Notes: a model not told the origin generated them from the letters alone. A DNA stretch of 32,000 bases from Candidatus Baldrarchaeota archaeon (GCA_019056805.1 DXJG01000002.1:74735-106734); one strand, 5' to 3'; counted from the stretch's first letter, positions 9,186 through 20,841 are shown. Program-made: numbers and translations.

Positions 9186-12100
9186 ATGAGAAAATGGCCA
9201 CTATTACTAATATTTATTATATTGTTGACATCTTTTACCCCCTTATCGATAAACGAAACCATCAGCAGTTACTCAGATTCATCAGAGAATATTTTCCATT
9301 TCAGCCGCAAAACATCCGCGGAACTTGAGAACATCCTTTACTCACCAAAAGTTTCCGATGACGAAAAAATCTCAGTAATACTAGTAGCGAAACGGAGTCT
9401 CAGTGCAAGCGAATACGATGAACTTGCAAATGTGTGTGAAATTTTAGCCAATACTAGCAGAGTTTTTGTAATAAGAACATTCAAAAACGACATTACACGT
9501 ATAGCATCTCTCCCATTTACACTTTACTTAGATTCAGGGCTTAAAACCGCCGAACCTCATCTAATGGATACTTCCATTACAACGCGCACAAACTACGCAT
9601 ATTATGTGAAAGATGTTTCTAACCAAAATGTAACTGGCAAAGGAATCAAAATAGGAATTATCGATACAGGAATAGACTGGAGACATCCATTCTTCTATTA
9701 TGATGATGGACTGACTTGGGAGGTTATAAACGAAACCTTTGCTATGCTACCAAACGGGACTCTATGTAATTATTCCTTTATAGACGTTGTAACTGTTCAG
9801 CCAGCTGCTCAGGGAGCTCCATCAGGAGATCTTGTAATACCAGTTCCCGATGGAGTGTTCAATATAGGCTATGAATACCTTTACCTAGATCTCGATAATG
9901 ACAGCAAACCCGATGTAGATCCCGACAATCCTCAGAGGATAGAATATGGAATCTTAATAGACTCTGATGGGAATGGTATCCCGACAGCAGGTGATTTTAT
10001 TAAAATGTTACGAACACCAAAAATCAAGAAGATCCTTGATCAAAGATCATATCCCTACACCGTATATATTAGTGGAGTAAACCTATCACAATTTGATCCT
10101 GTAGATTCTTCCGGAGGGGGGGGCATGGTGCTCACGTCGCAGGTATAATTCTAGGAGGTCATAGTTTAATGAAGATACATGGAGTAGCACCTGACGCGGA
10201 AATTTACGTTGTTGCTAACGGGGGATATTTCACATCTGAAAACGTTATCTACGGAATGACATGGCTTGCACAAGAGAACGTTAGCGTAATAAATATGAGT
10301 TTTGGCGGAACAATGGGATACTTAGATGGTTCAGATCCATGGGATATAGCAATAAATGATTTATTCAAACAGGGAATTATATCGATTGTATCCGCTGGGA
10401 ATGACGGTAATAAAAACCATCATATCGAAGTAGAAATACCAGCATTAAGTAACGTAAATTTAACGTTTAATGTTCATGACTTAAACATATATCTAAATAT
10501 TCTATGGAGAGAACCTTGGAGTAACCTAGAATTCTACATAATTTCACCATATGGAAATGAATACAATCTAGGATCTTTTACAAATCCCTTATTTGTAGAC
10601 ATTCCAGGAGTAAACATTTCTTGTACAAGCTCTATGTCACCCAGATACACCCGTCAATTCCTAATAAGCATATATAACCTTACACCTCTAGACGGAGCTA
10701 TATGGACACTAAAGATCCGCAATCCGACAAACAAGATGCAGAAAATAAATGGTTACCTCTTGTGGTCAACCTCTAACACATGGAATCCGCCATACCTAAG
10801 TAAAGAGCACACAATTACCTCTCCAGCTACGGCAGACTCAGCAATAGCGGTTGGAGCATTAACTAAAGATGGTTGGTTAACGTCTTACAGCAGTATAGGA
10901 CCAAGAATTGACGGAGTTAATAAGCCAGAAATTTGTGCACCAGGTGGACACTATGACCTAGGATATGATAACCCCTATATTCTCTCAGTTGACGGCGATG
11001 TGTCCAACGGTCAGCCTCCATATACCCATGGACATGGATATTATACGTATATGTGTGGAACAAGTATGGCAGCTCCCCACATCACGGGTTTTGTAGCACT
11101 TCTTCTACAGGATAACCCAAATCTATCACCAACGGAGATTAGAGAGTTACTATTTCTATCTACAGGATATACACATTTCCTACCTCACACTGTGTATCCC
11201 ATGCCTGATGATACCGTAGGCTACGGTGGATTCGGATACATGAATATTCCACAGCTACAAACTGACGGAATTAATGGACCAGGACCTGTTTATGTTACCT
11301 CATGGTACCCATCTGGTTTTTCCATCGCTTATAATAATTGGCTCTCTGGTAGTCGAGGTATCATTGTTGACGGTGACGACAATGACTGGTTAATATACTA
11401 TCCAGTAATAATACATAATGATTCAAGATGGTACGAAGAATATAGTTTCAAGTTATATTCATGGCATGAAAATGAGTCGCATATCTTCTTCTACATGAAA
11501 TTTAGAGTAAACTATGTTCCCGTTGGATATATGATTAATGTTTATATTGGCAGGGAAAGACCAGGCTTCATGGGTGTTGTGGATTATTATTTACCTGAAT
11601 GGAAACTTTCCTACAACACTTCCTCTGGAATATCTCAGTTAGAGTTGTGGAATAATCAAACAAATCAGTATGGGGTAATGCCAGCTGGCGGATTTTTCGG
11701 GGTAAGCACAGGATTTTCATCGATAGATGGTAACTGGCTTATAGAATTCTATGTTCGAAAAGATTATATTGAAATGCAAAGCTTAAGCGAAGCAATAATA
11801 TATTTTGCAGTATATGACATAAACTACGCGGCTCTCTTAAACAACAATGACCCTTACAATAGACCTGGAGCTTCATTCTATGCATCTATAGATCAAACAC
11901 CCGTAGCTAGTTATGTAAACACAACATATGTTAGTAATAGTCATGGAATGTATATAGATATAGTAACATCGCTTAATGACTACTGGGGCAATGTAAGCAG
12001 AGTTCTACTTATGAGCTACTCACCCAGCGGAACTTCTACAATCATATATATGGAATATAATTCTAACACTAATCTCTGGGAAGCTAGTTATAGCATCACC

Positions 12101-12823
12101 CCAGCAAATCAAAGCATAGGCGAGTTTAAGAACATATTGATAATTTACGACGAATTAGGAGCGAAAACAACAATAAATTCACCGCCAACAGTCATGTATA
12201 CGTTAATTGACAATGTTGCACCTCTAATATCACTTGAAATACCAATGTACGCTACTGGAACGATTCAAATCAACTGGACCGTAAATGAGGAAAATCTCAA
12301 GAATTTAACATTGTATATCGACTCTGACAAATACGATGTCCTCGGAACTAACATCTTCACTTGGGATACAACACAATACGACGATGGAAACCATATAATC
12401 AGATTATATGCTCAAGATGCTGGCGGACTTGAAAGCGAAGTTATAGGAAATGTTATTGTTGATAATACACCTCCAGCAATAATCATAATTTCTCCGATTA
12501 ACAACACAAGAATAAGTGAGGATTCAATAGAGGTAACTTGGCAAGCCTTTGACAATGTAAAAGTAGATCATTTCGATATCTACCTGGATGGAGTATTAAT
12601 AATGCAAAATGTTTCAGCAAGTCAAAGAAGCGCTACTATAACCGAATTATCACAAGGAACACACGTATTAAAGATAAAAGTGTACGACGAAGTTGGAAAT
12701 TACTCAGAAGCGACACTTATATTCACATACAAACCACCGACAATAATGTATATAGTAGCAGCAACCCTCATAATAGGATGCGCCGTTGCAGTAATTCTAA
12801 TCAAAAGAAGAAAAACCACTTAA
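9186..12823 (+). pseudogene. Secreted, C-terminally anchored S8 subtilisin-like protease, split by a 1-nt frameshift into ORFs 9186-10148 and 10169-12823 (pseudogene, phase-variable gene or sequencing error)
   Basis: ORF1 has a signal peptide and catalytic Asp (IGIIDTGID). The His motif HGAHVAGII begins at 10124 in the frame of ORF2, upstream of ORF2's ATG. ORF2 has the oxyanion Asn (SAGNDG), Ser (GTSMAAPH), Ig-like repeats and a TM helix with a KRRK tail. One extra G in the G8 run gives a single ORF of about 1212 aa. Confidence 0.88.
10116..10123 (+). repeat. G8 homopolymer at the protease frameshift
   Basis: TCCGGA-GGGGGGGG-CATGGT. It is the longest G or C run I found in the window. Confidence 0.95.
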
Positions 12824-17230: not shown

Positions 17231-17710
17231 ATGAGCGAAGACAAATTTTTAAGAGTTATATGGAAGTATGAGATAGAAAGAATCAATGATCATTTGCCTA
17301 AGAAGACTAGATCCCTATCGAGTCTCTTAGAAGATGAAGATCCATATGTCATTTCTAGAGATGGTAGTAATTTTACCATAGATAAGGATGAGTTGAACTT
17401 TCTTGCTTCTTTTATACCCAAGGAGCTTCATGATTTTATTAGGCTTCCTATTGTTCTTATTCGTAGATTAGATCTGGGTAGAGGAGTTTTTACTATTAGT
17501 GGTGGAAAACTCGAGCGGTTCGTTATTCATAAACTTTTAAAGAATACAAACGCTTCATTTTCAGAATATAGAAACATAGAACTACCTCTATACATCTATT
17601 GGCCTCACGTTGTTGAATTAAGAAGAAGATTTAAAACCATTATTACAATCGGATTTGGAGTTTCTAAGAAAGATATGGATGACGCTAGAAGATTTCTTAG
17701 AGGTTATTGA
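17231..17710 (+). CDS. DUF61 family protein
   Basis: EI.RINDHLP......L..LL.E..P.V..RDG and ..RLPIVL pattern; located next to flpA. Confidence 0.8.
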   Translation: MSEDKFLRVIWKYEIERINDHLPKKTRSLSSLLEDEDPYVISRDGSNFTIDKDELNFLASFIPKELHDFIRLPIVLIRRLDLGRGVFTISGGKLERFVIHKLLKNTNASFSEYRNIELPLYIYWPHVVELRRRFKTIITIGFGVSKKDMDDARRFLRGY

Positions 17711-17783
17711 TGCTTTATTGATAGCGATTAGTTTTTAAGTCAGTTGTTTATCCTATTTTTTAGAAATCAAGAGGCAGTTATCC

Positions 17784-18749
17784 ATGCTCTCAGAGCGGTT
17801 AATGCTATTAGAACGTGTTAAGAAGGTATTTGAAGAAGCTGGTTTTGCTATTTCTATGTACTGCAAAATAAAATCCACATGTTTCGACCTTGTTGCTAGA
17901 AAAAACAGATGGCTTTTATTTGTTAAGGTGTTATATAATGTAGATAGCTTACAACAAGGCCATGCAAAAGAATTAAAAATCCTTTCTCTGATTTTCTCTG
18001 CATCTCCATTAGTTATCGGAGAGAAAAGCGGTCACACGGTATTAGAGGACGGAGTTGTTTACGAAAGATACGGCATACCCGTAATCAATATTAATTCACT
18101 TATTAATGCTCTAATCGAAGGCAGGTTTCCATTAATTCTTGCTAAAAGAGGAGGATTTTTTGTAAAAATAGATAATAAAACCTTGAGATCTAAAAGAATC
18201 AGAAAAAATCTTTCACTCGGCGTATTAGCTGAAATGATTGGGGTATCCAGAAAGACTATTTATGAATATGAAAGGGGTAGCATGGATGCTACAGTCGAAA
18301 CTGCGCATAAACTAGAAAATTTACTAAATGCGAAGTTAACACAACCAATAAACGTTTTTTCATGGAAAGTTGAGGATGTGGATCTTCTGGAAACTAAAGA
18401 TGCTGAAAACGAATTAAAAGAAATTGTATGTGAATTATTATCCGAACTAGGTTTTGGTGTTATCCCTACCTTTAGATCACCTTTTGATGCTGTTGCAAAA
18501 ACTCCTGAAGCTAGAATTATTTTACTAACTGGAGTGGGATATCCGGGTGAAAGAGGTATAAGAAAAAGAATAAAGATTGTTAAGAGCGTATCTCAGATAA
18601 TACGAAAGTACGCGGTCTTTGTTTTGGAGGGGAAACGTGTTTCTCCAAATATAGATGGAGTTCCTATATTAAAGACCAGTGAACTCAAAAGAATGGAAGA
18701 ACCAGAGGAATTACTCAGTACAATCATGAAAAGACAGGTAATTAATTAG
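17784..18749 (+). CDS. COG1395-type XRE-HTH protein with PD-(D/E)xK-like flanking domains
   Basis: CFDLVARK...LLFVKVLYNVDSL, VYERYGIP, and central HTH LSLGVLAEMIGVSRKTIYEYERG. Confidence 0.85.
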   Translation: MLSERLMLLERVKKVFEEAGFAISMYCKIKSTCFDLVARKNRWLLFVKVLYNVDSLQQGHAKELKILSLIFSASPLVIGEKSGHTVLEDGVVYERYGIPVININSLINALIEGRFPLILAKRGGFFVKIDNKTLRSKRIRKNLSLGVLAEMIGVSRKTIYEYERGSMDATVETAHKLENLLNAKLTQPINVFSWKVEDVDLLETKDAENELKEIVCELLSELGFGVIPTFRSPFDAVAKTPEARIILLTGVGYPGERGIRKRIKIVKSVSQIIRKYAVFVLEGKRVSPNIDGVPILKTSELKRMEEPEELLSTIMKRQVIN

Positions 18750-18764
18750 AATACTATCTAAATG

Positions 18765-19424
18765 TCATAACAGTTTTTTCTGTAAAACACATCTCTCATA
18801 GATCCTTTTGGCAGTTGACCAGGTTTTACGAACACAATCCGGCAGTCTACGGTGTTTTTTTACATAATTTTCCAAAAATTGGACAGTTTTTTTATCTGAA
18901 GGATATCCACTGCCAAAGTCTCCATATATCTTTTTTAACTGCATAATTACTTGATCTCTTCTAACTTTAGCTATAATAGATGCTGCAGATACAATAGGAT
19001 AAGTTTTATCTGCTTCATGCTCGGAAATAATAGTTATTTTTCTCATTGAGGCTGGTAAAAAAGATATAATAGTTTTAGAAAATCTCTCTGGCTTGACATC
19101 CGCAGCATCTACATAAACAACATCAGGATTCAATTCTACGATTATTTCTGACATATATTTTGCCTCTAATGTGTTTAGTGACATTCCTAATATTATTCTG
19201 TCGTCTATTTCTTTTGGACTAATCTCTATTATCTTAATTTTCTCTGCAACCTGCCTAATTTTCTCTGCAAGCCTTTTACGTATATTTGGTGACAGAAGTT
19301 TAGAGTCACGAACACCAATACTATTAAGATGACCTACACTTTCTTGTTTAATCAAAACACCCACAATAACCATCGGCCCTATTACTGGCCCCCTACCTGC
19401 TTCATCGAGACCTAATATATTCAA
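18765..19424 (-). CDS. rnhB: Ribonuclease HII
   Basis: GLDEAGRGPVIGP, VRDSKLL, YVDAAD, VSAASIIAKVRRD, GSGYPSD. Confidence 0.98.
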   Translation of the reverse strand: MNILGLDEAGRGPVIGPMVIVGVLIKQESVGHLNSIGVRDSKLLSPNIRKRLAEKIRQVAEKIKIIEISPKEIDDRIILGMSLNTLEAKYMSEIIVELNPDVVYVDAADVKPERFSKTIISFLPASMRKITIISEHEADKTYPIVSAASIIAKVRRDQVIMQLKKIYGDFGSGYPSDKKTVQFLENYVKKHRRLPDCVRKTWSTAKRIYERCVLQKKLL

Positions 19425-19538
19425 TCTAGTCTTCTCTCCTGCAATGGTCTTTGGAATCTCTTATTATTTGTCACAACTAAAAATTTGGGTAATGTTGATT
19501 AAATGTTATATGTTTGTGAGATCATGGAGGAATGATCA

Positions 19539-20804
19539 TTGTTTAAATGTACTGATAAATGTCCAGCTTATGGATGGTGTCATACAATCCGTGAAATGGT
19601 AGGAAAAAATTATATAAAAGCTGTAGAGATGTTCAAAGAAACCGAAAAACCACAATTTTTTAAACAAATTAGAGAAAAGAGGGTTAGATTTTCTTATCCA
19701 GCGATGAAACCTGTTAACATGCTTAACAGAGATATTTCAGTTGCAGCACTTCAATCATTCCAGAAAAACAACGATAAAAAACTGACAGTATGCGAACCAC
19801 TTTCAGGATGTGGAGTTCGCGGCATAAGATACGCTAAAGAGGTTAAAGGAATCGAAAAGGTCGTAGTTAACGATTGGAGCCCTTTAGCTTTCTCTTTAAT
19901 CAAGGAGAACATAAAAATTAATGATGTCGAAAATAAGGTGAGCGCGTATAATGAAGAGGCGTCGTCATTAATGTGCAAATTCTCTGCTCAAGGTATACGT
20001 TTTGATGTTGTTGATATAGATCCATATGGATCTCCAGTACCATTTTTAGATGCAGCACTTAAAGTTCTAAGAGCTAAGAACGGTTTTTTATGTATTACGG
20101 CAACAGATACAGCAACTCTTTGCGGAGTGTATCCTGAGGCATGTTACAGAAAATATCATAGTAAGCCTTTAAGAACGGAGTATAATCATGAACTTGCTGT
20201 GAGAATTCTTACAGGTTATGTTGCAATGGAAGCCGCTAGATATGACATAGGAGTTAAACCAGTTTTTTCGTATTTTAATGAACACCATTTAAGAATTTTT
20301 TTGGAAACTAACCAAGGTGCAAGACGCGCAAACGAAAGTATCAGAAAGTTGGGGTATATACTACATTGTTTTAACTGTAATCATAGAGAGGTTTTAAAAG
20401 AAATTATAGGATTCTTACCCAACGCATGTAAAGTTTGTGGATCCGATAAAATTGATTTAGGAGGACCTCTTTGGATAGATAAGATAGTAGAAAAAGACTT
20501 TTGCAGAAAAATTTTTACAATTCTCGAAGAAATGAATTTTTATACCAAAAAATACGCATTAAAATTTGTAGGTACAATTCTTGAAGAAGCTGATGCACCA
20601 ATTTTTTACCATAACATTCATAAGGTTTGTAAGGAGGCTAAGGTTCAAGTACCACCTAAGATAATTCTAATTGAAGAATTGAAAAAAAGAGGATTTAGAG
20701 TATATGAAACACACTTCAGTCCCTACGGAATAAAGACAGATGCACCACGCAAGGAACTGTTAGAGATCGTAAAACAGCTACAAGATGACCAACACTTAGT
20801 TTAA
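19539..20804 (+). CDS. trm1: tRNA (guanine26-N2)-dimethyltransferase with an atypical N-terminus
   Basis: LNRD, LSGCGVRGIRY, VVNDWS, FDVVDIDPYGSP.PFLDAA, TATD, CxxC..CxxC zinc finger, GPLW, THFSP.GIKTDAP. Confidence 0.92.
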   Translation: MFKCTDKCPAYGWCHTIREMVGKNYIKAVEMFKETEKPQFFKQIREKRVRFSYPAMKPVNMLNRDISVAALQSFQKNNDKKLTVCEPLSGCGVRGIRYAKEVKGIEKVVVNDWSPLAFSLIKENIKINDVENKVSAYNEEASSLMCKFSAQGIRFDVVDIDPYGSPVPFLDAALKVLRAKNGFLCITATDTATLCGVYPEACYRKYHSKPLRTEYNHELAVRILTGYVAMEAARYDIGVKPVFSYFNEHHLRIFLETNQGARRANESIRKLGYILHCFNCNHREVLKEIIGFLPNACKVCGSDKIDLGGPLWIDKIVEKDFCRKIFTILEEMNFYTKKYALKFVGTILEEADAPIFYHNIHKVCKEAKVQVPPKIILIEELKKRGFRVYETHFSPYGIKTDAPRKELLEIVKQLQDDQHLV

Positions 20805-20841
20805 ACACAGTTATTTACACCTTTGAATTTTTACTAGAGAG

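Follow-up and report, generated by a model that had tools for sequence, protein, structure and literature searches.

A G8 run places the catalytic residues of a predicted archaeal surface subtilase in two reading frames

A gene predicted to encode a membrane-anchored cell-surface S8 subtilase is broken by a run of eight guanines (G8) in a 32,000-nucleotide stretch of DNA from a Candidatus Baldrarchaeota archaeon (GCA_019056805.1, DXJG01000002.1:74735-106734). This whole stretch is referred to here as the window, and positions are counted from its first letter. The run lies immediately before the codon of the catalytic histidine and leaves the gene as a first open reading frame (ORF1), which stops shortly after the run, and a long continuation in the -1 frame. 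The organism is a deep-subseafloor one. The same run length is present in every assembly in which the site was found, the orthologous genes are unbroken, and the split gene has kept its selective constraint. We lean towards explaining the locus by a very young slippage frameshift at an accidental run, which is OFF in all sampled DNA and revertible in principle.

At the break, the window reads TCC GGA GGG GGG GGC ATG GTG CTC ACG TCG CAG GTA TAA in the frame of ORF1, with the stop codon eight codons past G8. The segment 10110-10148 comprises the run and the tail of ORF1, which ends in ...DSSGGGGMVLTSQV, the tail itself being GGGGMVLTSQV. Read in the -1 frame from 10124, the DNA gives HGAHVAGII and remains open to the end of the gene. 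The Pfam match to Peptidase_S8 is divided accordingly, with profile positions 1-23 (the Asp box) in ORF1 residues 151-173 and the remainder of the domain (PF00082, E 1.1e-48) together with Big_7 in the second frame. All of the S8 motifs (IIDTGID, HGAHVAG, SAGNDG and GTSMAAPH) are encoded and in order, and about 150 amino acids form a long insert between the Asp and His motifs. In the G8 state, the Asp, His, Asn and Ser residues do not lie within one polypeptide; only a read-through with G9 or G6 joins them, in a single protein of 1212 or 1211 amino acids, respectively, as neither half of the gene contains another stop. The histidine codon is translated in neither annotated ORF. With the aspartate in ORF1 and the histidine, asparagine and serine out of frame, no annotated product can be an active protease. 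An earlier annotation made by a model from the DNA letters (the original prediction) had described this layout, and its description was confirmed in each respect: a G8 frameshift in a subtilase with ORF1 ending in TAA, a break directly before the catalytic histidine, a -1 frame reading HGAHVAGII and running into the second ORF, halves otherwise free of stops, and an intact subtilase of about 1212 amino acids with G9 or G6.

The source of the window is a metagenome-assembled genome (MAG), and homopolymers are classic sites of error. Several further runs in the same genome also appear one base short. For these reasons, a sequencing or assembly error with a true sequence of G9, which the original prediction had named as a serious possibility, had to be considered. 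However, G8 with letter-perfect flanks is present in five assemblies or contigs that stem from two or more studies of crustal fluids at Juan de Fuca: the MAG itself, a 7.2-kb Logan contig from SRR3723048, a 42-kb contig from Joint Genome Institute (JGI) assembly 3300004069, a 1.2-kb contig from JGI 3300037673, and a 1520-nt Logan contig of depth 11 from a separate 2020 "marine metagenome" study, whose ends carry Nextera (Illumina) adapters. The Logan assemblies, at depths of 7 and 11, show 0 differences to the window over 1.5-3.7 kb. Logan contigs are built from exact 31-mers, with each run assembled on its own and rare variants dropped, indicating that the reads themselves contain G8. Since independent k-mer assemblies of different runs and studies reproduce G8, and the two JGI assemblies agree with them, an error is largely excluded and we consider it very improbable.

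No other allele was found in the available collections. In two further sequencing runs from 2020, X4 and X5, no contig covers 10072-10205; the contigs end 50-90 nt from G8 (one of them at an adapter) and not at the run, indicating patchy cover and not an assembly bubble. A collection of 15 billion proteins contained no G6 or G9 (full-length) and no G7 or G10 (altered ORF1 tail) protein of this population, and the ORF1 cluster in it has two members only, both of them G8. JGI metagenome contigs were also scanned for the two flanks with a filling of 5-11 bases, which gave no matches in a scan from which records of the genome itself may be excluded. Among the sequencing runs listed as containing the sequence, none was an RNA run.

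Comparison with related genes places the run in this population alone. The six orthologues are single intact ORFs of 1212-1299 amino acids, and all six loci read [S/T]-G-[Q/W/Y]-G-H at the site, in mixed codons. The same-genus orthologue is an intact protein of 1230 amino acids, with an identity of 74% to the window gene across its full length and of 77% in the C-terminal 899 amino acids, and reads DSSGQGHGAHVAG with the codons agc ggg cag gga cat. Four more full-length relatives were recovered among 5.8 billion proteins searched. The closest relative, referred to here as the sister, comes from a hydrothermal-vent metagenome, shares 90% amino acid identity over the whole gene and reads TCT GGA TGG GGA CAT; all four alleles of the sister population are intact at 1212 amino acids. 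Across the six orthologues and four sister alleles, the longest G run at the site is 4, and a poly-G tract is kept in none of them. Because these sequences carry mixed codons, the G8 run is derived and private to this population. Relative to the sister, the window has a T to G change at the variable middle residue (TGG to GGG), a synonymous GGA to GGG change and two extra G; it is colinear with the orthologues for at least 70 nt on each side, and the 2 extra nucleotides both lie inside the run. The conserved G-x-G-H-G motif lends itself to seeding a G run, and growth from its two conserved glycine codons, which flank a free position, explains why the run sits just before the catalytic histidine.

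In order to examine selective constraint, NG86 dN/dS was calculated with the same-genus orthologue as outgroup and a window read-through built by dropping two G's. Between window and sister, dN/dS was 0.15 for the whole gene, 0.21 upstream of the run and 0.11 downstream of it. The lineage-specific nonsynonymous to synonymous changes over the whole gene were 28/68 here and 25.5/67.5 in the sister (Fisher p 0.87), and downstream of the break, in the part that G8 leaves untranslated, they were 9/45 and 14/43 (Fisher p 0.35). The 1224 codons of the window gene contain no secondary stop. Among the signs of a pseudogene, a reading frame broken relative to intact orthologues is therefore present, and neither relaxed constraint nor secondary lesions were found in the window gene. 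These values point to normal purifying selection over essentially the whole branch, with a neutral portion that we roughly estimate at a few per cent at most. Since constraint is not relaxed, the break must be very recent unless some compensation keeps the gene in use; if the gene is a pseudogene, only a very young one fits the lack of decay. Two features by which the original prediction would have recognized a simple pseudogene, fixed G8 (here across assemblies) and mixed codons in the orthologues, do match, and by that standard the balance tips towards a simple pseudogene.

The number of long G/C runs in the genome is ordinary, with no excess. Five runs of at least 8 are present (four of 8 and one of 11), compared with 3.1 expected under independent, identically distributed bases and 4.7 under a fourth-order chain. 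Matches to the G8 pattern number 0-11 in twelve relatives and 8 here, counted as overlapping hits on both strands, the 8 coming from the five runs. The original prediction had called a G8 run rare in this genome, which these counts qualify, and had called runs of GGG codons atypical, which holds, as GGG is the rarest glycine codon of the genome (10.5%). In contrast to its frequency, the position of the run exactly at the meeting point of two long frames is not chance: among the G/C runs of at least 6 in the genome, G8 alone joins two long frames, of 324 and 901 codons, when one base is added. A genome-wide test of +/-1 homopolymer changes that fuse long frames gave 44 matches, 24 needing +1 and 20 needing -1, most of which are merely adjacent genes, and the count is no measure of the error or pseudogene rate.

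The repair genes of the host bear on how stable such a run may be. NucS/EndoMS is present (NucS_C match of 106 bits) along with one weak match to a MutS_V domain (G000:C9:111129-111464 and G000:C17:17604-17975), whereas a search of the genome, which is 91% complete, did not find MutL (PF01119). Indels of 1-2 nt escape NucS, which has been linked to homopolymer phase variation in mycobacteria (PMC11551767). This repair set is expected to leave slippage loops of 1-2 nt uncorrected. With NucS present and MutL not found, G8 should, on mechanistic grounds, slip often, and ON revertants should arise.

Taken together, the locus is probably best read as a slippage lesion of recent date. Two ordinary substitutions would have turned the conserved G-x-G codons before the histidine into a G run, the length of which would then have shifted to G8, from G6 by a gain of 2 or from G9 by a loss of 1. 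Replication slippage would in this way have recently knocked out the subtilase in this clonal population; on this path, which we infer, a recent break has escaped rescue, and the run would keep slipping without loop repair, with revertants arising and a lesion that is revertible in principle. Another of the four S8 genes of the genome has likewise been interrupted at a homopolymer, as general slippage damage would lead one to expect. Several observations weigh against this reading. Purifying selection that is still intact agrees equally well with a gene that remains in use by way of reversion or recoding. No fewer than three changes in 7 nt, two substitutions plus at least one indel, were required to arrive at G8, a hint that the run changed length repeatedly. 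At least four other genes for secreted or membrane proteins are likewise broken at homopolymers, and the -1 direction that they all share looks less random than plain decay. In addition, contigs hide minor alleles, so that an ON subpopulation is possible.

The original prediction had proposed the tract as a candidate phase-variable switch. In such a contingency locus, slipped-strand mispairing at poly-G would turn the surface protease ON and OFF, selection would keep both run and gene, and the sampled population would be mostly OFF. Several features of such loci are found here: a G8 within the ORF of a predicted signal-peptide-bearing, membrane-anchored protease of a low-GC genome, loop-repairing mismatch repair not found, both gene halves still under strong purifying selection, and a run that took several steps to form. 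Further long runs lie in or beside envelope genes (a G8 before a second subtilase ORF, a G11 in an Ig-like gene and a G8 before a small membrane ORF), and precedents exist in bacteria that lack loop repair, reportedly including glpK and other homopolymer tracts of Mycobacterium tuberculosis (PMC10334774). However, none of the 6 orthologues and 4 sister alleles carries the run, where conservation of a poly-G tract had been proposed as a check, a single length occurs in every assembly with no ON allele among assemblies or clustered proteins, long G/C runs are not in excess across the genome, and the run arose from conserved glycine codons through neutral-looking changes. A demonstrated or evolved switch is thus not borne out, and we regard the idea as possible but doubtful.

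Recoding would reconcile the intact constraint with the broken frame in another way, by a ribosomal -1 slip on G_GGG_GGC or an RNA polymerase that adds a G, with some full-length protease made from G8 DNA. The run fits the X_XXY_YYZ pattern in the ORF1 frame (G_GGG_GGC, 10118-10124), although any run of 8 satisfies this pattern in any phase and the match carries little weight. The break lies in the direction (-1) that slippage can correct, and a slip to -1 would yield an ordinary subtilase with the junction ...SGGGGHGAHV..., its predicted junction peptide being ...DSSGGG(G)HGAHVAGIILGGHSLMK, that is, ...DSSGGG(G)HGAHVAGII. According to a review (PMC5009743), archaea and their viruses have known or likely cases of such frameshifting. 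Against this, no stimulatory structure was detected downstream, where RNA fold z-scores (-0.29 for 10124-10200, +0.64 for 10128-10250 and +0.22 for 10090-10180, compared with +0.58 for the sister sequence) are no better than those of shuffles or of the sister, and the two-frame layout is not conserved, all orthologues being single ORFs. Efficient known -1 frameshift sites have A- or U-rich second codons, which also counts against recoding here. Nothing at the locus speaks for transcriptional slippage, which has been characterised mainly on A/T runs (PMC1088944). We therefore consider rescue by recoding improbable. A tRNA-type mini-intron of the bulge-helix-bulge kind, spliced from the mRNA to restore the frame, was also considered and rejected; the gene is otherwise colinear with its orthologues, and its 2 extra nucleotides, both in the G run, offer no insert able to form a bulge-helix-bulge, which makes this explanation negligible.

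The features of the split gene are collected in Table 1.

Table 1. Coordinates of the G8 run and of the predicted features of the split subtilase gene in the window
Feature	Position	Strand	Description
G8 homopolymer	10116-10123	+	frameshift point; reads GGG GGG GG/C in the ORF1 frame
ORF1, 320 aa	9186-10148	+	signal peptide, N-terminal/propeptide-like region, Asp box, large insert
ORF1 signal peptide	9186-9257	+	signal-peptide-like N-terminus MRKWPLLLIFIILLTSFTPLS
Asp box IIDTGID	D160 at 9663-9665	+	in ORF1
-1 frame, 899 aa to stop	10124-12823	+	opens right after G8 with CAT GGT GCT CAC GTC GCA GGT
Catalytic His, HGAHVAG	10124-10126	+	-1 frame
Oxyanion Asn, SAGNDG	10400-10402	+	-1 frame
Catalytic Ser, GTSMAAPH	11063-11065	+	-1 frame
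Big_7 Ig-like domain(s)	12473-12673	+	-1 frame, after middle region
C-terminal membrane anchor	12743-12802	+	hydrophobic, then basic tail KRRKTT
ORF2 as taken by gene callers, 884 aa	10169-12823	+	from ATG 10169; without signal peptide, Asp and His

About 20 nt past the ORF1 stop, a GGAGGT motif lies 9 nt upstream of the ATG at 10169 (window 10154-10171). Re-initiation at this codon could give a cytoplasmic fragment of 884 amino acids with neither signal peptide nor catalytic activity. The motif corresponds to conserved Gly-Gly codons, and the sister allele has it as well.

Alignment of window positions 9186-12823 with the sister (L029 6001-9639) showed a mosaic of divergence. In codons about 140-300, which include the Asp-His insert, about 22% of nucleotides and 32-42% of third positions have changed, almost as many as against the genus outgroup; the figure is about 8% for codons 330-900 and about 3% for codons 900-1211, and the average over 15.6 kb is 8.5%. 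Multi-nucleotide replacements cluster in the insert (for example, HVE to FAM at 185-187). The mosaic suggests recombination or diversifying change in an exposed insert together with recent exchange at the 3' end. A recombination junction was considered as the origin of the run and rejected, as the divergent block ends at about codon 270-300 and not at the run, and both sides of the run are similarly divergent.

Elsewhere in the genome, four S8 genes are found, two of which are intact (open frames of 1261 and 2586 codons) and two of which are broken at homopolymers. The second broken gene (G000:C15:71976-73519, L038 1977-3519) consists of a 63-amino-acid signal-peptide ORF (MFRRITITLLIVMLLFL...) and a catalytic ORF, the two overlapping with a -1 offset at CTA AAA AAT (A6), and the ATG of the signal-peptide ORF is preceded, at a distance of 10 nt, by a separate G8 run; a search for orthologues of this subtilase gave a partial match only. 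At G000:C3:~17600-20838, a signal-peptide frame closes with CTA AAA AAT TGA, and the -1 frame leads on from there into a surface protein of about 1000 amino acids; at G000:C13:~14691 the gene of a multi-pass membrane protein with seven transmembrane segments is split at GAC CCC CCA (C6). The G11 run (G000:C18:35894-35904, L039 5895-5905, minus strand) is near the 3' end of a 260-amino-acid Ig-like (Big_13-type) gene, where the present frame stops about 20 codons on and G12 or G9 opens 56 protein-like codons (GGYKLVATNPGQFYYNIEVVNDWP...). No orthologue of this gene was found in the genus, and similarity to homologues ends about 85 nt before the run.

All five homopolymer sites examined, counting the G11 as a candidate break, need one extra base or a -1 slip, and most encode secreted or membrane proteins. 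The shared direction may reflect deletion-biased slippage with drift in a clonal population, loss of envelope functions, ascertainment by readers who seek heptamers, or something more systematic. In the last case, one-base homopolymer slippage, in DNA or as a ribosomal -1 slip, could act as a general reversible ON/OFF mechanism for envelope proteins in an Asgard archaeon with NucS as its only such repair, at least five genes being "-1" OFF or leaky (two of the four subtilases, the signal-peptide protein of about 1000 amino acids, the seven-transmembrane protein and the Ig-like protein). We regard this as unlikely; if true, no repertoire of contingency genes or leaky frameshifts would have been described in archaea before, and the organism would be a free-living one of the deep biosphere.

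Two further G8/C8 runs of the genome lie at G000:C18:43964-43971 and G000:C9:559598-559605. One of them is 7 nt upstream of the GTG of a 103-amino-acid ORF with a hydrophobic N-terminus, where it might serve as a ribosome-binding site or spacer.

Apart from the break, the window gene resembles other membrane-anchored archaeal and Asgard S8 subtilases, including the intact 1261-codon paralogue (G000:C9:347660-348496), in its signal peptide, Asp/His/Asn/Ser residues, Ig-like domains and C-terminal anchor; it differs from them in being split between Asp and His and in the insert of about 150 amino acids there. The fucA1 gene of Sulfolobus solfataricus uses A_AAA_AAT as its frameshift site, and its product has been detected. 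Like fucA1 and the archaeal -1 candidates (PMC5009743), the window gene consists of 0/-1 overlapping ORFs joined at an X_XXY_YYZ-type heptamer, whereas the heptamer of the window, G_GGG_GGC, lacks a stimulator and is not conserved.

Parallels are also found among bacterial homopolymer tracts. The 7C tract of M. tuberculosis glpK (Vargas et al. 2023, PMC10334774) is likewise a short coding G/C run that changes length, in a NucS background and in a gene otherwise intact. Thousands of isolates, as well as experiments, are reported to document that this tract varies in length and reverts, whereas here one length is seen, the tract is private and reversion is inferred. Poly-G/C loci of Campylobacter jejuni, Neisseria and Haemophilus (PMC11868660; Neisseria survey PMC5084427) share with the window a G8-class run, a surface gene, low GC and frameshift ON/OFF states. 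However, long G/C runs in those bacteria are far above chance and are kept across strains at varying lengths, while here they are at chance level and the tract is private and of one length; those bacteria are also host-associated, in contrast to a free-living subsurface archaeon. In inlA of Listeria monocytogenes (Orsi et al. 2010, PMC2831843), a surface protein is likewise truncated by a 1-nt homopolymer change, and the allele, which some lineages carry as fixed, reverts at a rate that can be measured. The inlA tract is poly-A, at the 5' end of the gene and bacterial, and the tract described here is poly-G, about a quarter into the gene, at the active site and archaeal.

The host genome is a MAG of 1.92 Mb in 18 contigs, 91% complete and with 35.5% GC. 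The genes neighbouring the subtilase are GatD/GatE, ELP3, Nop5 and fibrillarin, and the closest named records with an orthologue are "Candidatus Baldrarchaeota archaeon Yap30.bin4.67" and a Guaymas MAG labelled Thermococci. On the basis of these neighbours and records, the host is placed as an Asgard, Baldrarchaeia-like archaeon. The G8 allele is found in SRR3723048, which is the metagenome of basalt-hosted crustal fluid from borehole U1362A on the Juan de Fuca Ridge flank (Jungbluth et al., PMC5385130), and the host is a thermophile from these crustal fluids.

For annotators, the two ORFs are a single gene. If the locus is only a fresh pseudogene, the finding is an ordinary one, of one clonal crustal-fluid population losing an extracellular protease. 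If tract lengths prove to be mixed, it would be a rare documented case of an archaeon, and an Asgard one, that varies phase by slipped-strand mispairing with no host-pathogen setting involved. Together with the NucS-only repair and the other one-base-short breaks in envelope genes, the G8 locus provides a concrete test of whether contingency loci exist in archaea.

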